DNA from: a virus
Lineage: Duplodnaviria; Heunggongvirae; Uroviricota; Caudoviricetes
Length of the DNA stretch: 23,430 bases
Virus record (IMG/VR): IMGVR_UViG_2675903330_000005
Coordinates: 1-23,430 of that record
Reading direction: 5' to 3' (one strand)
The position numbers and the translations under genes were made by a program. The notes below the pieces were generated by a model. The model was not told the DNA's origin. It saw only the letters and a program-made list of their open reading frames with translations, and did not search any database. This document shows positions 1 to 13,636 of this stretch, one piece after another (position 1 is the stretch's first letter; each line of letters starts with the position of its first letter).

Positions 1-1017
1 TCACACTTCTAGCGTTGCGAGGGGGTTGAATCTCAGAGCCGTCTCAAGATGATCGGGTGCTAAATGGGCATAGCGCATAGTCATTTTTATATCGTGATGT
101 CCGAGGATTTTTTGCAAAGCAAGGATATTTCCACCCGACATCATGAAGTGCGCCGCAAACGTATGGCGCAGAACGTGTGTCAGTTGACCGCGAGGGAGCA
201 CGATAGACGTTTTTTCCATCACGGATAAAAATTGAAAATAGCAGTCTGTAAAGAAATTGAACCCATCAAGCGCCATGATCTCTTCGTAAAGCTCTTTACT
301 GATAGGGATGCTTCTGTTTTTCTTCCCCTTCGTTCTTACAAAGGTAATTCGGTATTTGGTCACTTGCGAGCGGGTAAGATTTATTGCTTCTCGCCAGCGT
401 GCGCCTGTGCTTAGGCATATCTTGACTACCAGTGCCAGAATTGGGTCCTGACGTTTGCAATCAGCCAGCAGTTCAACAATCTGCTCATGGGTAAGCCATG
501 CCATCTCTTTTTCTGCGATGGTGAATTTTCGCATGTTCTCCAGTGGGTTCGGATACGACCATTCGCCCAGGCGGGATAGTTCGCTAAAAACACTACTTAG
601 ATAGCTTTGCTCCAGGTTAATGGTGACCGGGCTTGCTCCTTTCTTCCATTTCTCGCTGAAGTAGATCTCACCTGTCAGGCGTTTATCTCGATAGTGGGCA
701 AACATTTTAGAGGTTAGATCAGTTGCAAGGGGATTGCCCAGAGCGTCAACCATCAACAGCAGTTTGTCATAGACATGCTGCCCAGCTGTCAGAGATTTAC
801 CATGTAGTTTGAACCATAGCTCAATCACGTCTTTCAATGTCCGACGATCCACTGATTCGCCCAGCCAGGGCTTTGCTTCGGTTTCTTCCATCGTGTGACG
901 CTCAAAAGCCAGAGCTTCGCCTTTGGTGGCGAATTGTTTACGCACACGACGTCCACTACGTCCGGCGGGGTAACATTCGCAAAGCCATTTTCCTGTGGTG
1001 AGTTTTCGTACTGCCAT
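1..1017 (-). CDS. int: Phage integrase, tyrosine recombinase (P2 Int-like); likely start at the internal ATG (Met27 of the track ORF), about 338 aa
   Basis: Translated ORF has the P2-integrase-like C-terminal catalytic region (..LSTGARWREA.., ..HVLRHTFAAHFMMSGGNILALQKILGH.., ..MTMRYAHL..); N-terminus MAVRKLTTGKW matches the P2 Int start pattern; stop codon at window position 1-3. Confidence 0.9.
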   Translation of the reverse strand: MAVRKLTTGKWLCECYPAGRSGRRVRKQFATKGEALAFERHTMEETEAKPWLGESVDRRTLKDVIELWFKLHGKSLTAGQHVYDKLLLMVDALGNPLATDLTSKMFAHYRDKRLTGEIYFSEKWKKGASPVTINLEQSYLSSVFSELSRLGEWSYPNPLENMRKFTIAEKEMAWLTHEQIVELLADCKRQDPILALVVKICLSTGARWREAINLTRSQVTKYRITFVRTKGKKNRSIPISKELYEEIMALDGFNFFTDCYFQFLSVMEKTSIVLPRGQLTHVLRHTFAAHFMMSGGNILALQKILGHHDIKMTMRYAHLAPDHLETALRFNPLATLEV

Positions 1018-1203
1018 AAAAAATGCCCTCCAGTAGAGAGCATTTTTACTGTATGTATAACCAGTGTCAATGTATGAAATCCTGCGACCATACATCTCAC
1101 TGAAGCCATAATGAAGTTAGCTATTTTTTGCTATGTGAGTATGTGACTTTTGCGGTTAGCCTGCGGCTCATTGTTATATTAGGCGCAGATATAAAAGCAA
1201 AAT

Positions 1204-1395
1204 TTATCGCGAGTTTTTAGTACAGATTTTTTTTGATTTACTAATAGTTCCATCATTGCAAACGAACTTTCCATCGGAGGTACAGTGAGAGACACCTCCC
1301 TTTTTCCCAGAACAAGGATAATTTTTAGCATAGGTAGTTAGTGGGTTTAATAACAAAGAGCATGATAAAACCACAAAAAATACCTTACCAAGCAT
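1204..1395 (-). CDS. Small secreted cysteine-rich peptide (63 aa, predicted signal peptide, 4 Cys in mature part); function unknown, moron-like
   Basis: Hydrophobic N-terminus [23 protein letters not shown] followed by a Lys/Cys-rich approx 40-aa region; strong SD GGGAGGA 5 nt upstream of ATG; sits 16 bp downstream of cI on the same strand. Confidence 0.45.
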
Positions 1396-1410: not shown

Positions 1411-1986
1411 TTACCTAACGTACTTAATTGTTAAACTTATAATTTTCCCAATTATTTCAACATCTTCTATCTTGCACTCGAAGGCTCTGTTTCCACCCTC
1501 GACGAAGATTCTTCCACCGGGTAAACGAGTAATGTCACGGATCGTTATTTCGCCATCAATACTTATTACCCATTTACCATCACGTATATCATCAAATTCC
1601 TTATCACAAATAAATTCAGAATTATTATCTGTGATTACAAAAAGATTCTTGAATGCCGACGGTAGAAATTCTCTATCGAAAATATAAAAACCGTCTTCAC
1701 ACAAGGCCCCATCAGATAATACATATTTAGCAACTTCCATAGTATTTGTATTACCTGAAGTTTGCTTTGAACCATGCCCGGTTGTGAGCCAATTAAGCGA
1801 GGTGCCTGTTTCAAGGGCGCACTGGATTACCCATTCTGCTGGGAATGAGTCACGCATGTAGCGTGTGGCGAGTGTACTTTTAGAGATTCCTAAATGATCG
1901 CACAACGCCTGTCGAGTCTTGAATCCATAAGCTTCTACCATGCGCTCTATAGCGCCTCGTCCGCCTTTCTCCAAATTCATGGTCAC
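1411..1986 (-). CDS. cI: Immunity repressor, phage 186 CI-type
   Basis: N-terminal region ..IERMVEAYGF..HLGISKSTLATRYMR..CALETGTSLNWLTTGHG matches the 186 CI HTH-domain pattern as I recall it; about 190 aa; located between int and divergently transcribed apl/cII. Confidence 0.85.
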   Translation of the reverse strand: MTMNLEKGGRGAIERMVEAYGFKTRQALCDHLGISKSTLATRYMRDSFPAEWVIQCALETGTSLNWLTTGHGSKQTSGNTNTMEVAKYVLSDGALCEDGFYIFDREFLPSAFKNLFVITDNNSEFICDKEFDDIRDGKWVISIDGEITIRDITRLPGGRIFVEGGNRAFECKIEDVEIIGKIISLTIKYVR

Positions 1987-2105: not shown

Positions 2106-2327
2106 ATGAGACCTAACATTTCAATCACTCTTACCACCCCTCATGTGACTATTGAACGCTATAGCGAGCTGACAGGGCTATCCATCGATACCATCAATGA
2201 CATGTTGGCTGATGGACGCCTTATCCGTCACCGACTGCGCAAAGATAAAAAACGCGAAAAAGTGATGATCAACATAGCAGCAATGACCGTTGATGCGCTT
2301 TCAGAATGCAATCTAAACCTTAATTAG
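2106..2327 (+). CDS. apl: Apl/Cox-type excisionase and transcriptional regulator (small HTH protein)
   Basis: 73-aa protein, first gene of the rightward operon opposite cI; HTH-like segment [23 protein letters not shown]; positional equivalent of 186 apl / P2 cox. Confidence 0.6.
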
Positions 2328-2359: not shown

Positions 2360-2869
2360 ATGTTTGATTACCAAGTTTCCAAACATCCACATTTTGATGA
2401 AGCCTGTCGTGCATTCGCATTGCGCCACAACCTGGTGCAACTGGCAGAACGTGCTGGCATGAATGTGCAGATTCTGCGGAACAAGTTGAACCCAGCGCAA
2501 CCTCATTTATTAACCGCACCAGAAATCTGGCTGCTTACCGATCTGACTGAAGATTCAACGCTGGTAGATGGTTTTCTGGCTCAGATTCACTGCCTGCCAT
2601 GCGTACCGATTAATGAGGTGGCAAAAGAGAAACTGCCACATTACGTCATGAGTGCAACCGCAGAGATCGGGCGTGTTGCTGCAGGTGCGGTATCTGGCGA
2701 TGTAAAAACCAGTGCAGGTCGTCGTGATGCTATCAGCAGCATTAACTCTGTAACACGACTGATGGCGTTGGCTGCTGTTTCATTGCAGGCCCGTTTACAG
2801 GCTAACCCTGCGATGGCGAGTGCAGTTGATACCGTGACTGGCCTCGGTGCTTCATTCGGTTTGCTGTGA
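2360..2869 (+). CDS. cII: CII-type lysogeny establishment activator (phage 186 CII-like)
   Basis: Sequence [72 protein letters not shown] closely matches the 186 CII protein as I recall it; ATG at 2360 preceded by an AGAGG SD. Confidence 0.85.
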
Positions 2870-3910: not shown

Positions 3911-4764
3911 GCACCATCCTGAAATGGGCGGGTAATAAAACCGCCATTATGTCCGAACTGAAAAAATACCTTCCTGCTGGCCCGCGACTGGTTGAACCTT
4001 TCGCGGGTTCTTGTGCTGTGATGATGGCGACGGATTACCCCAGCTATCTGGTTGCGGATATTAATCCTGATTTAATCAACCTCTATAAAAAGATTGCCGC
4101 TGATTGCGAAGCGTTTATATCTCGTGCCAAAGTTTTATTTGAGGAAGCAAACAGTGAGCTGGCTTATTACAACATAAGACAGGAGTTTAATTACTCAACT
4201 GAAATTACTGATTTCATGAAGGCGATATATTTCCTGTATCTCAATCGTCACGGTTACCGTGGTTTATGTCGCTATAACAAGAGCGGGTATTTCAACATTC
4301 CCTACGGTAATTATAAAAATCCGTATTTCCCTGAAAAAGAAATTCGCGCATTTGCAGAGAAAGCCCAGCGGGCAACGTTTATCTGCGCGAGCTTTGATGA
4401 AACGCTGGCGATGCTGCAGGTGGGGGATGTGGTGTATTGCGATCCGCCGTATGACGGTACGTTTTCCGGCTATCACACTGATGGTTTCACTGAAGATGAC
4501 CAGTATCACCTGGCATCCATTCTTGAACATCGGTCATCAGAAGGACATCCGGTCATTGTTTCTAACAATGACACATCCCTGATTCGTTCGCTGTATCGCA
4601 ATTTTACTCACCACTATATCAAGGCAAAACGCAGCATCGGCGTGTCAGCTGGCGAGGGTAAATCTGCAACAGAAATCATTGCTGTTTCCGGGCCGAGCTG
4701 CTGGTTGGGATTTGATCCTTCGCGTGGCGTGGATAGTTCTGCCGTGTACGGAGTGTGTGTATGA
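3907..4764 (+). CDS. dam: DNA adenine methyltransferase (Dam-like, GATC N6-adenine MTase)
   Basis: N-terminal LKWAGNK and FAGSCAV (AdoMet-binding) motifs plus catalytic DPPY motif (..[11 protein letters not shown]..); start ATGA-overlaps the upstream stop. Confidence 0.9.
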
Positions 4765-7175
4765 GTCATGACGATATGAACAATTGCAGCGGCTTTAACG
4801 AGGCCGCCGCAGCATTTTCATGGAACGGCTCGAAAAAGGCCATTAACCCTTATCTGGACCCGGCGGAAGTTGCGCCGGAGTCTGCACTTTCAAACCTGAT
4901 CACTCTGTACGCTGCCGATAACGAGCAGGAACAACTGCGCCGCGAGGCACTGAGTGAGCAGGTCTGGGAGCGTTATTTCTTTAATGAATCCCGTGATCCT
5001 GTCCAGCGCGAAATGGAGCAGGATAAGCTCATTAGCCGGGCAAAGCTGGCGCATGAGCAGCAGCGTTTTAATCCGGACATGGTCATTCTGGCGGACGTAA
5101 ACGCCCAGCCTTCCCATATCAGCAAGCCGCTGATGCAACGTATTGAATACTTCAGCAGCCTGGGCAGGCCAAAGGCTTATTCCCGCTATTTGCGTGAGAC
5201 GATTAAGCCATGTCTGGAGCGACTGGATTGTGTACGTGACAGTCAGCTATCTGTTTCTTTCCGTTTTATGGCAAGCCATCAAGGGCTGGAGGGTCTGCTG
5301 ATCCTGCCTGAAATGAGCCAGGATCAGGTGAAACGCCTGTCCACCCTGGTAGCAGCGCATATGAGCATGTGTCTTGAGGACGCTTGTGGTGATTTGTATG
5401 CCACCGATGACGTTAAGCCAGAAGAAATCCGCAAGACATGGGAAAAGGTGGCAGCGGAAACCCTGCGTCTGGATGTTATCCCGCCTGCGTTTGAGAAACT
5501 TCGTCGGAAAAGAAACCGCCGCAAACCAGTGCCCTATGAACTCATCCCGGGTTCGCTGGCGCGTATGTTGTGTGCCGACTGGTGGTATCGGAAATTATGG
5601 AAGATGCGTTGCGAATGGCGGGAAGAGCAGTTGCGTGCTGTCTGCCTGGTCAGCAAAAAAGCATCCCCCTATGTCAGCTATGAAGCCGTGATGCATAAAC
5701 GTGAGCAGCGCCGTAAGTCGCTGGAGTTTTTTCGTTCTCATGAACTGGTGAACGAAGACGGCGACACGCTGGATATGGAAGATGTGGTAAACGCCAGCAG
5801 CAGCAACCCGGCGCATCGCCGCAATGAGATGATGGCCTGTGTTAAAGGTCTGGAGCTTATCGCGGAAATGCGCAGTGACTGTGCCGTTTTCTACACTATC
5901 ACCTGTCCGTCGCGTTTCCATTCCACGCTCAATAACGGCAGACCAAACCCGACCTGGACAAACGCGACGGTAAGACAAAGTAGCGATTATCTGGTCGGCA
6001 TGTTTGCTGCATTTCGTAAGGCTATGCATAAAGCCGAGTTGCGCTGGTATGGCGTGCGGGTAGCTGAGCCGCATCATGACGGTACTGTGCACTGGCATCT
6101 CATGTGTTTCATGCGTAAAAAAGACCGCCGCGCCATCACTGCATTACTGCGTAAGTTTGCCATCCGTGAAGACCGCGAGGAGCTGGGCAATAACACGGGA
6201 CCACGCTTTAAGTCTGAGCTGATAAACCCGCGCAAAGGTACGCCAACAAGCTATATCGCGAAATACATCAGTAAGAACATTGACGGGCGTGGTCTGGCTG
6301 GGGAGATCAGCAAGGAAACGGGTAAATCCCTGCGTGATAACGCTGAATACGTTAATGCCTGGGCGTCTCTGCATCGTGTTCAGCAATTCCGCTTCTTTGG
6401 CATTCCGGGGCGTCAGGCTTACCGTGAACTGCGATTGCTGGCTGGTCAGGCGGCAAGGCAACAGGGTGACAAAAAAGCAGGTGCGCCGGTACTGGATAAC
6501 CCGCGCCTTGATGCAATCCTGGCTGCTGCTGATGCTGGTTGTTTTGCCACCTACATCATGAAGCAGGGCGGCGTACTGGTTCCCCGCAAATATCACCTCA
6601 TCAGAACTGCTTATGAAATCAACGAAGAACCGACCGCATATGGCGATCACGGTATTCGTATTTATGGCATCTGGTCACCCATTGCAGAGGGCAAGATCTG
6701 CACTCATGCGGTGAAGTGGAAAATGGTTCGTAAGGCCGTTGACGTTCAGGAGGCGGCAGCCGACCAGGGCGCTTGCGCCCCTTGGACTCGTGGCAATAAC
6801 TGTCCCCTTGCTGAAAATTTGAACCAACAGGAGAAAGATAAATCAACAGATGGGGATCCCAGAACTGACATTACCTGTATGGATGACAAGGAGTTGCACG
6901 ATTACCTGCACAGTATGAGCAAAAAAGAGCGCCAGGAACTGGCAGCAAGATTACGCCTGATGAAACCGAAACGGCGTAAAGACTACAAACAGCGAATTAC
7001 AGAGTATCAGCGTCAGCAGCTCGTCTATGAACTGAAGTCAAGAGGATTTGATGGCAGCGAGAAAGAGGTCGATTTGCTCCTTCGCGGTGGCAGTATTCCG
7101 TCAGGAGCAGGCCTGCGTATCTTCTATCGGAACCAGCGTTTGCAGGAAGATGATAAGTGGCGGAACCTGTATTAA
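4761..7175 (+). CDS. A: Replication initiation endonuclease gpA (HUH rolling-circle initiator)
   Basis: About 804 aa; HUH motif ..[10 protein letters not shown].. and tyrosine pair ..[10 protein letters not shown].. characteristic of P2 gpA; start overlaps dam stop (ATGA). Confidence 0.9.
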
Positions 7176-7266
7176 TCACGTGGGTTAACAATTCGTGCTC
7201 TTAATAATACCAGGCATATCAGGCTGATGAACGTAAAAAACGTTTTACATCAGTAAGATTATTATA

Positions 7267-7286
7267 TACTGTAAATATAAACAGTG
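7267..7286. promoter_or_regulatory. Candidate LexA (SOS) box: TACTGTAAATATAAACAGTG (CTGT-N8-ACAG)
   Basis: Match to the LexA consensus TACTGT(AT)4ACAGTA core, overlapping a -10-like TATAAA/TATACT region about 45 bp upstream of a small ORF with a consensus SD. Confidence 0.55.
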
Positions 7287-7327
7287 GTTGTGCATACAGT
7301 GTTGCTTGTGGTGTCATAGGAGGAAAG

Positions 7328-7498
7328 ATGCAGGACTATTTTTTGGAGTCTTTGAAGCTCCAGCGCATTGATTTTTTTCTTAAGCTTGTGGCGGCTAGTG
7401 AGTGTAGTGATGAAGAGAAGGGGCTGGCTCTGCAGTGGGTTTCTGAGTTGACTGATGAGCTGATGGCGAGAATTCGCGCTCATGAATACAACCACTAG
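7328..7498 (+). CDS. Small 56-aa ORF downstream of the LexA box; candidate SOS-inducible Tum-like antirepressor or small regulator
   Basis: ATG preceded by a perfect AGGAGG SD at optimal spacing; not in the supplied ORF track (under 60 aa); translates to MQDYFLESLKLQRIDFFLKLVAASECSDEEKGLALQWVSELTDELMARIRAHEYNH. Confidence 0.35.
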   Translation: MQDYFLESLKLQRIDFFLKLVAASECSDEEKGLALQWVSELTDELMARIRAHEYNH

Positions 7499-7671
7499 AT
7501 GGATCTTCCCAGTAGTTTTTCGAAACTGAAAACAACCGAGTGAAAGTTACGACACTTGAGATTTTCACTTGGGTTATAATCAGAATACTTGTTTTCGTCC
7601 ACAAATGTACATGCCATGCATTAATGTGGTGATAGCTTTCAATTTTTACTAAATGGTTTCAATTGCTTCTT

Positions 7672-8217
7672 ATGAATCATGTAATGTTAGATATAGAAAC
7701 ATTGGATGTTGAAAAAACAGCTTATATCCTTTCAGTTGGTGCGGCTTTTTTCGTGCCGGAGACTGGCGAGATTGGTCCGGGTTTCTATCAAGTTATTTCG
7801 CTTGATCATGAACAAGCAGGCAGAACCATTGCCCCCTCTACTGTAAAGTGGTGGATGAATCAAAGTACTGAAGCTAAAAACGAAAATTTTGATGGCACTA
7901 AGGACCTTTTAGAGGTTCTGAATGAATTTGTGGCATTTATTCTTCATAATCGTACTGGCCGAGTAAAAGTGTGGGGAAACGGGAAAGAGTTTGACTGCAC
8001 GATCATGCATCATGCCCTGTTACAGGCGGGTCTGGATTGCCCATGGTCATTCAGAGATACTCTTGACGTTAGAACCATCTTAGCACTTGGTGAAAGCAAA
8101 GGAATTTTTTCTCATGCTGATAAAAATTTCACTGGCATTAGGCACACAGCATTCGATGATGTTTTATTTCAGATCGCACAGGTTTCTCACATCTATATGA
8201 ATTTAAATAAAAAATAA
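7672..8217 (+). CDS. DEDDh-type 3'-5' exonuclease (DnaQ-like fold), about 181 aa
   Basis: Exo I motif VMLDIETLD, Exo II-like ..VWGNGKEFDCTIM.., Exo III motif ..HTAFDDVLFQI..; first gene of the AT-rich cargo cassette; start codon uncertain (7663 TTG / 7672 ATG / 7684 ATG). Confidence 0.7.
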   Translation: MNHVMLDIETLDVEKTAYILSVGAAFFVPETGEIGPGFYQVISLDHEQAGRTIAPSTVKWWMNQSTEAKNENFDGTKDLLEVLNEFVAFILHNRTGRVKVWGNGKEFDCTIMHHALLQAGLDCPWSFRDTLDVRTILALGESKGIFSHADKNFTGIRHTAFDDVLFQIAQVSHIYMNLNKK

Positions 8218-8232
8218 ATATAGGACTTAGCT

Positions 8233-9144
8233 ATGGATTGCTTAGATGTAACCTATTGGACTGAGCTAGATGTTTTCGCACAGTATCCTGTTGGTGCTCG
8301 CTCTAAGGCATTGGTTATTTCCCCTGATGTTGCCCCCCATGGTATCAAAGCATCGTGGCCGTATCTTTTTAAGAGAAGCATTAAAAAATACCCAGATCAA
8401 TTTTGGTGTGAGATCGTTGCCTACAGGATTGGATTGCAGCTTGGTTTTAATGTCCCCAAAGCAGTTCCTTCGTTAAAGACTAATGATTTGGGGCATACGT
8501 TTTGCGGGGCCCTCATTGAGTGGTTTCATCATAAAGATTATGAGAAATTTGCTCCCGCTGGTGATTACTTTGTTCGAAGAGATCCAAATTTTGATCGTGA
8601 GAAAGGAGCTAAGCATTCCATTGAAGGGCTGAGGATTATCGCGAAAGCTCTTAAAGTTGACTATGTTGAGTGGTTGGAGAATATGGCTCTCTTTGACGCA
8701 GTAATAGGTAATACAGATAGACATCAAGAAAACTGGGGGTTTATCTTCTCACCTTTAACCAGCGAGTGTCAGCTTGCACCATTTTTCGATAATGGTACGA
8801 GCTTATGCTACGAACGTTTTCCGGAACATGTTGCTGATTGGACCGATCATAGACTCAGGGAGCATGTTAGCCGGGGAAAGCATCATTTGCGTAAGACTCT
8901 GGGCAAAGATGAGTATCAGAGATTAGGTCATTTAGAGTTAATCAAAGAACTTTGTGATAAAAAAGAAGAATTAAAACAGCGGGTAGCTGAAAGACTGGCT
9001 CGTTTGAACCATGACTTTTGGGACTCAACTTTTGCGGAGTTGACGGAAATAAACTGCCCTGTTCCGCTGACTAGAGAACGTGCTGCATGGATTGTTCGTG
9101 TAACAAACATGCGTATTGAACTGATTAAAGGTGTTACTTCATGA
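8233..9144 (+). CDS. HipA-family serine/threonine kinase, short HipT-like form lacking the HipA N-terminal subdomain
   Basis: P-loop-like ..VGARSKALVIS.. (cf. HipA VAGAQEKTAL), ..WCEIVAYRIGLQLGFNVP.. (cf. HipA YCLLLAKELGLNVP), catalytic loop ..VIGNTDRHQENWGF.. (cf. HipA IGATDGHAKNFS) and Mg-binding ..LAPFFDNGTS.. (cf. HipA LTPFYDIIS); 303 aa. Confidence 0.8.
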   Translation: MDCLDVTYWTELDVFAQYPVGARSKALVISPDVAPHGIKASWPYLFKRSIKKYPDQFWCEIVAYRIGLQLGFNVPKAVPSLKTNDLGHTFCGALIEWFHHKDYEKFAPAGDYFVRRDPNFDREKGAKHSIEGLRIIAKALKVDYVEWLENMALFDAVIGNTDRHQENWGFIFSPLTSECQLAPFFDNGTSLCYERFPEHVADWTDHRLREHVSRGKHHLRKTLGKDEYQRLGHLELIKELCDKKEELKQRVAERLARLNHDFWDSTFAELTEINCPVPLTRERAAWIVRVTNMRIELIKGVTS

Positions 9145-9845
9145 CTATCTTAATAGAAAAAATTCCCATGCCAAGTAGGCTCTTACTGACATGGCAACCG
9201 ACCGACGGCGGCTCTCGCTATGTCGTTGGTGAACTTCTTCAAGATGAGTCTGAAGGCTACGAGTTTAATTATCTTACGGATAGCAAAGATTTTGCTAAAG
9301 CTGTGGATAAAGGCTTTCACGGTTTTCCTGCTTTTGACATAAAAGTTACGACTCATCGCAAAGACGTTATGCAAACCTTTTCAAGAAGGTTACCCTCTAG
9401 GAAAAGAGAAGATTTTGCCGATTACTTGCTGACGTTTCGTCTTCCTGCTGATTTTAGAGAGAATGACTTCGTTTTGCTCGCTTGTACTGGCGGAAAAGTG
9501 GCTAGTGATGGTTTTTATTTTGTCCCAGACTTGTCTTCTATTCGGCCACCTTTTGATTATGTCATGGAGGTCGCCGGAACGAGACACATGATTAAGGAAG
9601 GGCGTCTAGCTCTTGACGAGATATCAATTGGTGATGAAGTCATATTGCGCAATGAAGATACCAATACTGTTGATCCGCTGGCCATATTAGTAACGAAAAA
9701 CGACAATCATCTAGGATATGTCAACAAGGCATTGTGCGCCGCATTACGAGATCTTGGTAAAAACCATGATATCAGTGGAGTGGTCGTACGTAAAAATGGC
9801 TCTTCGGATAGGCCTTTGATTTATGCAAAAGTATCTGTTAGATGA
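9141..9845 (+). CDS. Two-domain protein: N-terminal HipA-N-subdomain-like (HipS-like) region fused to a C-terminal HIRAN-like domain
   Basis: N-term ..LLLTWQPTDGGSRYVVGELLQDESEGYEFNY.. resembles the HipA N-terminus (..LVTWMNNQRVGELTKLANGAHTFKY..); C-term ..DEVILRNEDTNTVDPLAILVTKNDNHLGYVNKALCAAL.. fits the HIRAN pattern; start ATGA-overlaps the kinase stop. Confidence 0.55.
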   Translation: MTILIEKIPMPSRLLLTWQPTDGGSRYVVGELLQDESEGYEFNYLTDSKDFAKAVDKGFHGFPAFDIKVTTHRKDVMQTFSRRLPSRKREDFADYLLTFRLPADFRENDFVLLACTGGKVASDGFYFVPDLSSIRPPFDYVMEVAGTRHMIKEGRLALDEISIGDEVILRNEDTNTVDPLAILVTKNDNHLGYVNKALCAALRDLGKNHDISGVVVRKNGSSDRPLIYAKVSVR

Positions 9846-10013
9846 TGCATGTTTATTCATGCTTGCTAGTGATACTGCATTTATAGAGTCTGTCAACTAT
9901 GGAGATTTTTTCGTCTCATGCAACTACATTAAATTACCATTAAGTGGGTTGACGTTGCGGGGGAAGCATTACACGTCAGTATTGGTGCGTCTGAAGTGTC
10001 ATGCCGAAAAGGT

Positions 10014-10121
10014 ATGAAAAAGCCGCTTGGTAACATAACTATTCGCAATGATGTTGTAGGAAGCGAACTGGAAATGATAGCAATGGATGCTGTTGATGTA
10101 GTGTATGTCTATGCTGCATGA
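10014..10121 (+). CDS. Possible 35-aa micro-ORF (MKKPLGNITIRNDVVGSELEMIAMDAVDVVYVYAA) at the 3' end of the cassette
   Basis: ATG with an AAAGG SD-like sequence upstream; ends about 35 bp before the intrinsic terminator; weak support. Confidence 0.2.
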   Translation: MKKPLGNITIRNDVVGSELEMIAMDAVDVVYVYAA

Positions 10122-10155
10122 GTTTGCATGAACGTTTGAGGCTCGTTTTTGTTAA

Positions 10156-10181
10156 GGCCCGCCAGAACTGGCGGGCTTTTG
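10156..10181 (+). terminator. Rho-independent terminator closing the cargo cassette
   Basis: GC-rich inverted repeat GCCCGCC-agaact-GGCGGGC followed by TTTTG. Confidence 0.6.
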
Positions 10182-10225
10182 CTCATGTCATGCAGGTGCA
10201 TGAAAACCACTACATAAAGCGGGCA

Positions 10226-10244
10226 GGCGTGGCGGGGATACGAG
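10226..10244. other. Candidate cos site (19-nt cohesive end): GGCGTGGCGGGGATACGAG followed by CGCGCGC
   Basis: Matches the P2 cohesive end GGCGAGGCGGGGAAAGCAC at 14 of 19 positions and the 186 sequence as I recall it at about 15 of 19; lies between the post-gpA cargo region and gene Q, where cos sits in P2. Confidence 0.6.
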
Positions 10245-10305
10245 CGCGCGCAAACATGTTTACTTGCAATTAATGTAGATATATTCTGAAATTGATAACT
10301 TACAC

Positions 10306-10515
10306 ATGAAAGGAGACGTGAGAGTGGCAAAATATACACCGGGCCAGAAAGTAAAACATGCAACAGGACATGGTCCAATCATGGTAATTGATCACTACCA
10401 ATCGGCTACAATGGCAGTTTGTACGTGGTTTATTGGTGCTAAGAACCAGCGCGGAGTTTTTCATGAAGATACTCTAGTTTTATTTGTTCCAAAAGCTGAG
10501 AGTGATGATGAATGA
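10306..10515 (+). CDS. YodC/DUF2158-like small protein; start may be GTG at 10324 (63 aa)
   Basis: ..KYTPGQKVKHATGHGPIMVI....GVFHEDTLV.. resembles E. coli YodC (..GGPRMIV....EAFHETELV..); AGGAG SD 8 nt upstream of GTG 10324. Confidence 0.55.
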   Translation: MKGDVRVAKYTPGQKVKHATGHGPIMVIDHYQSATMAVCTWFIGAKNQRGVFHEDTLVLFVPKAESDDE

Positions 10516-10774
10516 TTCTCTGATAAAAATAGTTGACTGGATGGTTAATACCACTCGTTCTAATGGTGTGTTGTATCAGTCCGAGGTTGTTGAATTTCTA
10601 ATCAATGACTTTGGGGACGAGTTCATCAAAACTAATGAGAATGGTAATTACGCTATAAGCAGTACTGTGCTAGCAAATTTTAGAAAGGCTAGCAAAGACG
10701 ATATAGTTTGGGATCGTGAACAGTTAGCTTGGCGTTTACGCAATGAAAGCGATTTACCCGGACGGATGCAGTAG
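10508..10774 (+). CDS. Hypothetical 89-aa protein, overlapping the upstream small gene's stop
   Basis: ORF whose ATG (10505/10508) overlaps the stop of the YodC-like gene; no recognisable motif. Confidence 0.4.
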   Translation: MNDSLIKIVDWMVNTTRSNGVLYQSEVVEFLINDFGDEFIKTNENGNYAISSTVLANFRKASKDDIVWDREQLAWRLRNESDLPGRMQ

Positions 10775-10790
10775 AGATAATACAGAGAAT

Positions 10791-10831
10791 AGTGAACAAG
10801 CTGATAATTTCAACTTGTTCACTTCTTTTTT
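10791..10831. terminator. Hairpin terminator between the convergent small-gene pair and gene Q (possibly bidirectional)
   Basis: Perfect 10-bp inverted repeat AGTGAACAAG...CTTGTTCACT with 13-nt loop, followed by TCTTTTTT on the + strand. Confidence 0.5.
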
Positions 10832-11873
10832 ATGACTGATTATTTTCTAAGCCATAATATTCAAATTTGACTACCTCTTCATCTAACCATTCATTAATTT
10901 CGGCAATGCGTTTTTGTAAAGGCATCAGTTCATTCCGAACAAATACCCGGCTGGCTTTCTCCACATCCCCAAACCCCCCTACATTATTAGGCATAATCCC
11001 CATCATCTGCGGCGGCACTCGGTGTGCTGCCATCATGTCGTCCCGGCTCACGTTCTTGATATTCAGAAACTCATCCTTCGCCGCGACTTCTGACAACGGG
11101 ATGATCTGAAGCCCGTCCTTTTTGCCGTTAGGCGAGTACATAAACAGATTGCGGAAGTTACCTGGTCCTTTGGCGCTTTTCATCGCATTGCGGAGGTTGT
11201 TCACATCCTCCTGGTTTTGCGCGGCATCGGTCATGTACATGATGAAGCCTGCATGACTGCCGTTAATGTAATACTTTCGACGGAACAGCGTGGCGGACTC
11301 GTTGAGCAGGGCAGACGGAATGGCAGAAAGATAACCGGGCAGGCCGTAGATCTCCTGATTAATATCCGGTTCCATTAGATGAAAAATGCTGCCTTTCGTG
11401 AACTGATACGGCTGGGTTGTCATACCGTATTGCACAAACCAGTAGGTATCCAGGTCTAACCCGCGTCGGGTGTATTTTGCCAGCGCAGGCTCAAGGGCGA
11501 TAACTTCACCGAATCGGTTCGTGCGTTTCTCCAGGTAGGCGTTACCAAATACCAGATAGTCCTGCACAAAACGCGAAAAAGCCTGCTGGCTGAGCAGCGG
11601 GTGAGGGATATAGGTGCTGGTCAGAATGTTGCACTTTACTGCAATCGGTGAGCTGTGGTGAACGGCGGCGCGGAATGTTCGCGCCAGTCCGTCAAAACTT
11701 ACGGGTGGCTCATACCAGCGATCCGTCTGTACGCATTCCACATAGTCCAGCAGTTCGCGGCGGTCAAGTACTGGAATGGGATCACCGAAGCTGAATGCTT
11801 CGGCTGAAGTTTGGCTTTTATGCTTGAGCTGATTCGTCGCCGCAGCGCGGTTTTTCTTACTCTTTCCCATCAA
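10830..11873 (-). CDS. Q: Capsid portal protein gpQ
   Basis: 347 aa, leftward, ATGA-coupled to P; position and size match P2 Q. Confidence 0.9.
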   Translation of the reverse strand: MMGKSKKNRAAATNQLKHKSQTSAEAFSFGDPIPVLDRRELLDYVECVQTDRWYEPPVSFDGLARTFRAAVHHSSPIAVKCNILTSTYIPHPLLSQQAFSRFVQDYLVFGNAYLEKRTNRFGEVIALEPALAKYTRRGLDLDTYWFVQYGMTTQPYQFTKGSIFHLMEPDINQEIYGLPGYLSAIPSALLNESATLFRRKYYINGSHAGFIMYMTDAAQNQEDVNNLRNAMKSAKGPGNFRNLFMYSPNGKKDGLQIIPLSEVAAKDEFLNIKNVSRDDMMAAHRVPPQMMGIMPNNVGGFGDVEKASRVFVRNELMPLQKRIAEINEWLDEEVVKFEYYGLENNQS

Positions 11874-13636
11874 AAAATCTCCACAATATTGCTGGTATTG
11901 GCGGACTCGCCCTGCAGCGGTTCGTTAAACAGTGCGTGCATCGTTGCCCAGGCCAGATCGGCGTGGCTGGCTTCTTCGCTGCGGCTGGCTTCATAGGTCG
12001 GGCGGTTGCCACTGGCGGTGGTGGCGCGACGGATTGCCATAAATGACTGCGCTATGTCGGTGTGTCCGGCGTCAAACTCCAGACGACGGTGACTGATAAT
12101 GTCGTAGGCTTTGAGTACCAGGGCGTTTTTAACGTTGGGGTTGTAGACAAACTCCCGGACGGCAGGAAAGAACGCTTTCACGTTCTCGTAAACCCCGTGA
12201 CCGACACCTGTCGAGTCGATGCCGATATAGGTCACGTTGTACTGTTCGGTCAGTTTTTTGATGGCGTCAGCCTGGGCGCGGAAGTCCATCCCGCGCCACT
12301 GGTGACGCTCAAGAATGCGAAACTTACCGCCTGGCACGGCTGGCGGTGCCACCACCACGCATCCGGCGCTGTCGCCGTTCTGCGTACCTTTTGCCGGGTC
12401 ATAACCGATCCACACCTCGCGCCAGCCAAACGGGCGCAGGGCCAGTGCATGAAAGTCGGTCCAGACTTCCCAACTGTCCACCATGCACGCCTGCAGTTCG
12501 CTGAGCGGGAACACGGACGCGAGATCGTCCACGAACTCGCACATCAGCAGGTTCTGGTATTCGTCCGGGCTGTACTCCATGCGTAGCTGGTCGAGGTCGA
12601 ACAGGTTACAGCCGCCGCGCACCGCATCTTCCACGGTGACTATCTGGCGGTATTGCCCGTCTGCGCACAGCAGGCCGGGGGCCAGATTGCTGTGGGACAG
12701 GTCGATGTCCACCTTGTCGGCTTTGTTGCGTCCACGGTTGAACAGCGCACCGGACCAGAACGGATAAGCACTGTGTGTCAGGCTGGATGGCGTGGAAAAA
12801 TAGGTTTGTCGCCATTTTTTGTGAATAGCCATACCGGAAGCCACTTTGCGCAGCTCCTGAAATTTCGGTATCCAGAAATATTCATCCAGATACAGGTTGC
12901 CGTGATAACTCTGGGCAGTGCGGGCATTGGTGCCGAGGAAGTAAAGCGTGGCACCGTTAGGAAGCACCATCGGATCACCTTTCAGCTCCACCTCCACTTC
13001 TTTGGCGAAGTCGATGATGTACTGCTTAAAGACGTGGGCCTGTGCCTTGCTGGCGGAAAGGAAAATCTGGTTACGTCCGGTCAGCAGGGCGTCAATCAGG
13101 GCTTCACGGGCAAAATAGAAGGTTGCGCCGATCTGGCGTGACTTCAGCAGGTTGCGGATGCGGTTGGTTTTTCCGGCTTCCCACCAGTGGCGCTGGTAGT
13201 TGAACATGGAGGAATGGAAGATTTCTTCCAGCTTCTCAATCTGTTCATCGGTGAAAACATTCTTTTCCGGCTGACGGCGTGGGCCTTTGTTGCGGTTGGC
13301 GACGTTAGGGTTTAAGTCGGCTTCGTTGCCGCCATTGTTAAACTTGCCGATCCGCGCGTGGCGCTCCGACTGGCGCGCCAGCAGGTCAATCTCTTTGAAA
13401 TCTTTCCCTTCTTTGTGCTCCTTCATAATGAGCTGGCAGTAGCGTGCGGCGGTGGTGAGCTGCATCTGATCCAGCGGCCCATAGTCACCCCACTTGTCGC
13501 GTTTTTTCCAGCTGTGAACGGTTGCAACTTTCTCGCCCAGCATTTCAGCAATGCGGGCGACGCGGTATCCCTGAAAGTACAGCAGCATGGCCTGCCGACG
13601 GGGATCGAGATCTGCGGGTGTCAGTGTGGTGTTCAT
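11870..13636 (-). CDS. P: Terminase large (ATPase) subunit gpP
   Basis: 588 aa (P2 P is about 590 aa); divergent from the O-N-M-L operon as in P2. Confidence 0.9.
   Translation of the reverse strand: MNTTLTPADLDPRRQAMLLYFQGYRVARIAEMLGEKVATVHSWKKRDKWGDYGPLDQMQLTTAARYCQLIMKEHKEGKDFKEIDLLARQSERHARIGKFNNGGNEADLNPNVANRNKGPRRQPEKNVFTDEQIEKLEEIFHSSMFNYQRHWWEAGKTNRIRNLLKSRQIGATFYFAREALIDALLTGRNQIFLSASKAQAHVFKQYIIDFAKEVEVELKGDPMVLPNGATLYFLGTNARTAQSYHGNLYLDEYFWIPKFQELRKVASGMAIHKKWRQTYFSTPSSLTHSAYPFWSGALFNRGRNKADKVDIDLSHSNLAPGLLCADGQYRQIVTVEDAVRGGCNLFDLDQLRMEYSPDEYQNLLMCEFVDDLASVFPLSELQACMVDSWEVWTDFHALALRPFGWREVWIGYDPAKGTQNGDSAGCVVVAPPAVPGGKFRILERHQWRGMDFRAQADAIKKLTEQYNVTYIGIDSTGVGHGVYENVKAFFPAVREFVYNPNVKNALVLKAYDIISHRRLEFDAGHTDIAQSFMAIRRATTASGNRPTYEASRSEEASHADLAWATMHALFNEPLQGESANTSNIVEIF

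Follow-up and report, generated by a model that had tools for sequence, protein, structure and literature searches.

In phage 186, the LexA-regulated promoter p95 drives expression of Tum, which inhibits or sequesters the immunity repressor CI in a reversible manner (PMC7708051). Direct binding of Tum to CI, with a reversible loss of operator binding, has been established only for full-length 186 Tum (Shearwin 1998, as cited in PMC3121763 and PMC7708051), and the 186 sequence record states that full-length Tum "inhibits CI DNA binding", while the shorter products of the gene are annotated only as modulators. In Fels-2 and PSP3 the tum gene is split into two halves, according to Lemire 2011 (PMC3121763), citing Bunny 2002, and the upstream half of PSP3 tum is reported there to carry the antirepressor activity. 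In Escherichia coli HS, in-frame deletion of tum of the prophage DuoHS, or a lexA(Ind-) allele, abolishes both the lysis and the viral foci that follow mitomycin C treatment (PMC12055606); the deleted gene bears the locus tag ECHS_RS04495 (supplement of PMC12055606). Here we analyzed a stretch of 23,430 nucleotides (positions 1 to 23,430 of the IMG/VR virus record IMGVR_UViG_2675903330_000005, Caudoviricetes; the whole stretch is referred to as the window), which covers the early half of a P2-family prophage together with some of its late region. Our subject is a tumA-type open reading frame (ORF) of 56 amino acids (aa) in this window, which lies behind a LexA (SOS) box just downstream of replication gene A. 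We consider the locus to be the SOS trigger of a Fels-2/DuoHS-type (186-like) P2-family prophage, with a probability of roughly 0.87.

The following features make up the proposed switch (scores refer to a position weight matrix, PWM, described below).

1411-1980, minus strand: cI, 186-type immunity repressor gene and presumed target of TumA (Pfam Phage_CI_repr 2.8e-33, Phage_CI_C 8.5e-27)
4755-7175, plus strand: replication gene A
7244-7249, plus strand: -35 hexamer TTTACA of the SOS promoter, the equivalent of 186 p95 (read from the sequence)
7267-7272, plus strand: -10 hexamer TACTGT, identical with the left arm of the LexA box (read from the sequence)
7267-7286, no strand assigned: primary LexA (SOS) box, box 1, the 20-mer TACTGTAAATATAAACAGTG (PWM and conservation)
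7282-7301, no strand assigned: second LexA box CAGTGGTTGTGCATACAGTG, degenerate and offset by 15 nt so that it overlaps box 1 (PWM, 8.5 bits)
7318-7323, plus strand: Shine-Dalgarno sequence AGGAGG, 4 nt before the ATG at 7328 (read from the sequence)
7328-7498, plus strand: tumA-type ORF, 56 aa plus stop (TAG at 7496-7498), stand-alone homologue of the N-terminal (anti-CI) region of 186 Tum
7496-7519, plus strand: premature stop TAG followed by the remnant ancestral codons ATG GAT CTT CCC AGT (alignments with E. coli HS, Fels-2, L010, L049 and L024)

The gene order of A, then tum or a tumA-type ORF at the start of the variable region, then the portal gene is shared by 186, PSP3, Fels-2 and E. 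coli HS. The closest counterparts are found in the latter two. ECHS_RS04495 is a 62-aa ORF immediately after gene A that matches the window ORF at 95% identity across residues 1-55, and the -35 hexamer, box 1, the Shine-Dalgarno sequence and the start codon of both DuoHS and Fels-2 are identical to those of the window. Fels-2 STM2728, which encodes 62 aa, precedes a DinI-family gene and is annotated as a hypothetical protein, is likewise 95% identical to the window ORF. Both loci differ from the window in what comes next, since a DinI-like gene starts about 10 nt downstream in HS and Fels-2, whereas an exonuclease gene and cargo of the candidate defence system PDC-M03 occupy this place in the window. 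PSP3 shares a short upstream tum gene behind a LexA box downstream of A, and its record describes a 60-aa tumA product as "similar to 5' end 186 tum; UV induction of prophage" and places the DinI-like tumB next. However, PSP3 TumA is related to the window protein at the profile level only (about 15% identity in the multiple alignment), tumB is retained and a single box is present. Phage 186 itself resembles the window in the LexA site over a TACTGT -10 hexamer downstream of A, in the homologous residues 5-42 and in a cognate CI of 186 type that is not cleaved by RecA. In contrast, 186 Tum is a protein of 146 aa in which residues 87-145 form a fused, C-terminal DinI-like domain (PF06183) and whose gene contains nested internal starts; it shares about 21% identity with the window protein and is followed by orf97 and not by cargo. 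The same logic of a LexA-repressed small antirepressor that binds a non-cleavable repressor is found in GfoA, GftA and FsoA of the Gifsy/Fels-1 group and in AntC of N15 (PMC3121763). Gifsy/Fels-1-type operons often include a DinI homologue, and some of their antirepressors act in trans on other prophages (PMC3121763). By description these systems differ in their repressor family (gfoR/gtgR, with the relatives DicA and RacR) and in having dinI first in the gene order (PMC3121763).

LexA sites were scored with a symmetrised PWM derived from the 16 E. coli LexA sites in Table 4 of PMC3009722. The box at 7267-7286 reached 23.1 bits, compared to a mean of 20.6 bits (range 7.6-27.6) for the known sites when each was left out of the matrix in turn, while in 200 shuffles of the window the best score per shuffle averaged 10.4 bits with a maximum of 17.0. 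The sole other site of comparable score in the 23.4-kb window is located at 1047-1066. The bare core CTGT-N8-ACAG, with one match in the window against 0.38 expected, is not significant by itself and the PWM was therefore used in its place. TTTACA and TACTGT are separated by a spacer of 17 nt. A generic scan of positions 7000-7800 for promoters and terminators found none; it missed the SOS promoter because TACTGT fits TATAAT at only three of six positions, and this promoter was identified via comparison with 186 p95 and via conservation. The annotated p95 consists of TTCACA, an 18-nt spacer and TACTGT, and its LexA site begins at the first base of the -10 hexamer. Box 1 is identical in E. coli HS, Fels-2, phage 500465-1 and E. 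coli DS26-1. From these in silico data we infer that LexA would occupy 7267-7286.

The preliminary description of this stretch had already proposed a near-consensus SOS box that overlaps promoter-like hexamers and is followed by an AGGAGG sequence and a 56-aa ORF, in a position equivalent to that of 186 tum and in a prophage with a 186-type CI. Our results agree with this proposal: the box exceeds the best shuffled score by 23.1 to 17.0 bits, its left arm is the -10 hexamer, the Shine-Dalgarno sequence and the ORF are both present, and the ORF comes right after A in the same orientation, as in 186. The window CI matches both Phage_CI_repr and Phage_CI_C, reaches only 16.7 bits for Peptidase_S24 against a gathering cut-off of 23.3, and is 32% identical to 186 CI (E 1e-37), 98% identical to DuoHS CI and 40% identical to Fels-2 CI.

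To place these elements in a wider context, one genome per species was scanned, yielding a footprint set of 41 loci from Enterobacterales (Escherichia, Citrobacter, Klebsiella, Enterobacter, Serratia, Pantoea, Erwinia, Tatumella and others) with relatives that are 67-96% identical. In 39 of these 41 loci the best PWM match within the 130 nt upstream of the ORF scored at least 17 bits. A TTTACA or TTCACA sits 17 nt 5' of the LexA box in the related loci, the 17 nt in between vary freely, and the AGGAGG sequence is invariant in the five close relatives that were aligned. Judged from these alignments, conservation is a stronger argument for the LexA box than its score. One of the two exceptions (L014) is a contig with only 53 nt in front of the ORF. 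The other is L048 from Siccibacter turicensis (match 10001-10167), where the ORF stops after 20 codons and the box scores only 7.1 bits; it is the only locus with a disrupted tumA ORF, and its gene and operator have apparently degenerated jointly. Across each locus of about 20 kb, nearly all LexA matches of at least 17 bits lie directly before this ORF, the others being a box upstream of int in L009, L010 and L049 and, in L018, a site of 18.2 bits with no evident role that lies about 380 nt beyond the ORF. A comparable LexA box also precedes tum or tumA in the distant phages 186, PSP3 and Yersinia phage YenM 06.16-2, in which the flanks are unalignable. Of 5426 complete E. coli genomes, 1101 carry the module as a whole (window 7180-7510), always with the annotation "hypothetical protein"; 48 phage records (Klebsiella, Escherichia and Salmonella) contain it as well. 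The box, the promoter, the ribosome-binding site and the ORF exist and are all under selection.

The coding status of the ORF was assessed from the ratio of nonsynonymous to synonymous substitution rates (dN/dS). Compared with 16 relatives, the sense frame gave values of 0.04-0.20 wherever the synonymous rate was unsaturated, versus values of at least 0.6 in all but one of the five other frames. The exception, the antisense frame whose wobble positions coincide with those of the ORF, gave 0.14-0.45 and exceeded the sense value in all 13 comparisons calculable for both. By this measure the ORF is a real coding sequence under purifying selection. An antisense ORF at 7262-7495 (77 aa) was rejected, as stops interrupt it in 27 of 39 relatives. 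Longer upstream starts that would give 84-98 aa, as used in some database entries and in phage 500465-1, were also rejected because they begin upstream of the SOS box, and because the AGGAGG-ATG start and the MQDY N-terminus are common to all 41 loci.

The relation of the ORF to Tum emerged from reciprocal matches to the same PHROG families. The window ORF matched phrog_698 (E 1.6e-33), phrog_8554 (E 2.1e-8) and phrog_1993 (E 0.0029), and 186 Tum matched phrog_1993 with residues 1-61 (E 1e-22), phrog_8554 (E 1.4e-11) and phrog_698 with residues 7-44 (E 2.4e-5). An hhalign comparison of an 18-sequence family alignment with the N-termini of 186 Tum, PSP3 TumA and YenM Tum placed residues 5-42 onto residues 5-42 with 92% probability (E 6.3e-7). 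AlphaFold2, run with 26 sequences, predicted a two-helix hairpin with helices at 2-23 and 28-55 and a mean predicted local distance difference test score (pLDDT) of 89.8. A Foldseek search of BFVD with this model returned nothing at E below 0.001, the shape being a generic and uninformative hairpin; a sequence search of the PDB with the family profile and a PADLOC scan of the ORF gave no match either. The DinI families PF06183 and NCBIfam NF007893 are absent from the window ORF, while the C-terminal half of 186 Tum, included as a control, matches at 1.8e-17, and a DinI identity was rejected for lack of a PF06183 match. Based on these profile comparisons, the ORF encodes, as a protein of its own, the anti-CI module that forms the N-terminus of Tum.

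Three identities had been left open for the ORF in the preliminary description, which had also suggested aligning it to the N-terminal region of 186 Tum and to DinI. The first, a minimal antirepressor, is borne out by the stand-alone Tum N-terminal domain seen in the PHROG and hhalign results, and the alignment to 186 Tum holds over residues 5-42 by profiles, with a negative pairwise BLASTP. The second, a truncated tum, is correct insofar as one nonsense change has cost six residues, but the usual stand-alone form has only 62 aa anyway. The third, a different SOS-regulated gene, conflicts with the homology to the Tum N-terminus and with the loss of induction upon deletion of the orthologue; the 56-aa peptide shows no PF06183 match to DinI. 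These results bear equally on the proposal that the ORF is an unrelated SOS-inducible moron, such as a DinI-like modulator or a small toxin, that merely happens to lie downstream of gene A. Such a reading could draw on the "hypothetical protein" label in the databases, on the missing Pfam or NCBIfam family and on one record that names a "levan regulatory domain protein", a label that we treated as spurious. Given the profile homology to Tum, the missing DinI domain, the negative PADLOC scan and the abolished induction in the HS deletion (PMC12055606), it is highly improbable and already effectively refuted.

For the reading of the locus as an SOS trigger, the proposed course of events is as follows. 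In the lysogen, LexA bound to the box over the -10 hexamer and the transcription start, just past gene A, would silence the small gene. Upon DNA damage, RecA-stimulated self-cleavage of LexA would free the promoter and the 56-aa two-helix TumA would be produced. By homology with the N-terminal part of 186 Tum, TumA would then bind the 186-type CI and block its operator binding, and with CI inactivated the early lytic promoter would fire and the prophage would enter lytic growth. Since CI is without a self-cleaving peptidase domain, TumA would be the route to its inactivation. Direct TumA-CI binding is expected for the tumA family by analogy with 186.

Several points weigh against this reading. 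The HS experiment gives a requirement and not a mechanism, and TumA-CI binding is proposed here from homology. BLASTP of the ORF against 186 Tum gives no alignment, so the link to Tum rests on profiles and intermediates, and Pfam and NCBIfam scans of the ORF find no family. The nonsense mutation strips six C-terminal residues and the second LexA box is degenerate (8.5 bits versus 17.5 in HS), so that both the activity and the regulation could differ from those of the tested orthologue. Finally, TumA identity does not track CI identity, which is unexpected for a specific partner unless the contact surface is conserved.

This last point was apparent across 36 prophages, in which the median pairwise identity was 82% for TumA versus 42% for CI with a Spearman coefficient of -0.13. 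For the 264 pairs with TumA at least 85% identical, the median CI identity was 41%, and Fels-2 provides an example with a TumA 96% identical and a CI 40% identical to those of the window. The N-terminal domain is the best conserved part of CI, with a mean column conservation of 0.74 versus 0.53 for the C-terminal domain, and is a plausible common contact surface. The combination of near-identical TumA with CI of about 40% identity and no co-variation suggests recognition of the conserved N-terminal DNA-binding domain of CI. The same uncoupling could instead indicate that TumA is needed but acts on CII, Apl, a host protease, RecA or LexA and not on CI. This would fit with direct CI binding being known only for full-length 186 Tum (as cited in PMC3121763 and PMC7708051), and with the Phollow legend in PMC12055606, which states only that tum "inhibits pro-lysogenic regulators". 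However, the homologous segment is precisely the part of 186 Tum that is missing from the modulator-only shorter products, PSP3 tumA has been reported to have antirepressor activity (PMC3121763), the ORF shows no similarity to DinI or to any RecA-binding family, and the conserved CI N-terminal domain offers a common target surface. We regard a target other than CI as quite improbable.

The allele in the window carries TAG at codon 57, where L049-type alleles have TCG (Ser), and the codons after the stop are still recognizable as the ancestral ...SMDLPG tail. This single nonsense change removes six poorly conserved residues from a protein that has 62 aa in the relatives. The truncation is probably harmless, because the missing tail falls outside the part in common with 186 Tum (5-42), past the last invariant column R50 and past the predicted helix 2 (ending at 55), and because a separate 56-aa truncation at the same codon is found in Candidatus Pantoea rara (L035). 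The 56-aa allele is thus predicted to be active still. Homology to HS, Fels-2 and the phage records ends at about 7504-7519, with the megablast phage match ending at 7504. A tblastn search with the HS DinI-like protein found no DinI-like tumB anywhere in the window; 20 of the 41 related loci also have no DinI gene after tumA, which therefore is inessential to the stand-alone tumA class.

At 8.5 bits the second LexA box of the window (7282-7301) is inside the chance range, whereas the equivalent site scores 17.5 bits in E. coli HS and 15.0 in Fels-2. It scores 12-21 bits in 22-23 of the 41 related loci, a typical intact example being CAGTGGATATATATACAGTT with 19.6 bits. The arms GTGG and ACAG are invariant and variation is confined to the spacer. 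On the other hand, 16-18 of the 41 loci naturally have a single box, and in Pantoea and Erwinia-type loci one box is found that lies about 25 nt nearer to the ATG. The box sequences of the tumA promoter presumably resemble those of ColE1. Two overlapping LexA boxes are a hallmark of colicin operons, where two LexA dimers provide very tight repression of a lethal function (PMC2994835). The overlap with a 15-nt offset is matched by the tumA promoter in 22-23 of the 41 relatives. Colicin operons differ in that the second box of the window is weak, and cooperative binding of two dimers at tumA would be hypothetical.

Together, the TCG to TAG change relative to L049-type alleles, a second operator at 8.5 bits versus 15-21 in relatives and the missing tumB could be taken as signs of a decayed switch, with a crippled tumA, a poorly inducible or non-inducible prophage and a locus that is a relic. 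The rarity of the variant, with at least 99% identity in only 5 of 1105 E. coli records, would be in keeping with decay. In contrast, box 1, the -35 hexamer, the Shine-Dalgarno sequence and the start codon are all preserved without any change relative to HS, and the remaining prophage genes in the window are full length. A single box and a missing DinI gene are both natural states among the 41 loci, and the lost residues affect neither segment 5-42, nor any invariant column, nor helix 2, with an independent truncation at the same codon in L035. Decay is therefore an improbable explanation, and we retain the reading of a functional SOS trigger.

The remaining features of the window are listed below.

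1-1017, minus strand: int
1018-1041, minus strand: int leader hairpin GCTCTC-tactg-GAGGGC, then A and TTTTTT, located between promoter and ATG of int
1042-1070, minus strand: candidate second SOS promoter upstream of int, TTGACA (1070-1065), 17 nt, AAAAAT (1047-1042) (PWM and promoter scan)
1204-1395, minus strand: 63-aa ORF
2106-2327, plus strand: apl-like gene
about 2360-2869, plus strand: cII
about 7660-10770, plus strand: cargo block
7663-8217 (start at 7684 in E. coli DS26-1), plus strand: Rv2179c-like 3'-5' exoribonuclease, first cargo gene (Pfam 5e-50)
within 8233-9845, plus strand: HipA_C-like protein, 303 aa (PADLOC PDC-M03A, 4e-36)
within 8233-9845, plus strand: HIRAN protein, 234 aa (PADLOC PDC-M03B, 9.5e-37)
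10484-10774, plus strand: DUF6953 protein just before the portal gene (Pfam 5.9e-24)
10830-11873, minus strand: portal Q
11870-13636, minus strand: terminase P

The tumA-type ORF opens a variable region between gene A and the portal gene. The HipA_C-like and HIRAN ORFs overlap, and both are components of the PADLOC candidate defence system PDC-M03. The DUF6953 gene is found at the same place in E. coli DS26-1, there with an IS66-family insertion upstream of it. In the spacer between tumA and the exonuclease gene we noted a strong A/U-rich hairpin at 7536-7573 with a 13-bp stem, a small internal stem-loop and no U-run, followed directly by a perfect TATAAT at 7575-7580. The 63-aa ORF at 1204-1395, between cI and int, encodes a product with several cysteines and an N-terminus reminiscent of a signal peptide. 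The annotations of E. coli HS and DS26-1 list it as "hypothetical"; it belongs to no Pfam family and is absent in 186 and Fels-2, in which cI abuts int.

Compatible with the role of the locus as the prophage trigger, the LexA-controlled transcript might continue into the cargo and render it SOS-inducible. The cargo genes are all on the tumA strand, the pattern scan of 7000-7800 gave no intrinsic terminator and the spacer hairpin is without a U-run, and in 186 the p95 transcript passes a partial terminator into orf97. However, the spacer of 164-186 nt with its 13-bp hairpin and TATAAT could provide a promoter of the cargo itself or a site of RNA processing, and the homology break just past the ORF marks the cargo as an independent insertion module. 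Read-through into the cargo is, on balance, rather unlikely.

The second high-scoring LexA box of the window, CACTGGTTATACATACAGTA (1066-1047, minus strand), reached 23.5 bits and exactly fills the 17-nt spacer of the candidate int promoter. With 10 of 12 matches this promoter is the best promoter-like site in 900-2400, and the site lies 25 nt upstream of the int start (ATG at 1017). The block CATACATTGAC..CACTG..ACAGT is kept in L010, L049 and L039, with no alignable sequence on its upstream side. The block is confined to prophages with this Int type and was counted in 663 E. coli genomes; in Klebsiella phages homology breaks immediately upstream of the -35 hexamer of the int promoter. This arrangement suggests that LexA may also gate integrase supply. 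A literature search found nothing on LexA-controlled int in P2-like phages. The 3' arm of the hairpin in the int leader holds the Shine-Dalgarno sequence of int (GGAGGG), and relatives carry a cleaner form, GCCCTCA-gaca-TGAGGGC-TTTTTT; the hairpin might act in attenuation or in the control of translation.

The arrangement and the genetic requirement of the switch are already known, and the window holds a slightly shortened allele of a published and tested gene. As the switch logic has been described for 186 Tum and the requirement for the HS gene, the locus opens no new question; only the side observations on the double box, the int box, the TumA-CI relation and the cargo go beyond the accessible literature. 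Combined, a generalist TumA, a LexA-gated int and read-through from tumA into the defence cargo would mean that LexA coordinates derepression, integrase supply and cargo expression, a scenario that we put forward as possible but doubtful. If true, a generalist TumA could cross-induce heteroimmune P2-like prophages residing in one cell. For the family at large, a gene that about 1100 complete E. coli genomes list as "hypothetical protein" is in all probability the SOS trigger of a very common group of prophages, which is of use for annotation and for predicting which prophages are induced by DNA-damaging antibiotics.

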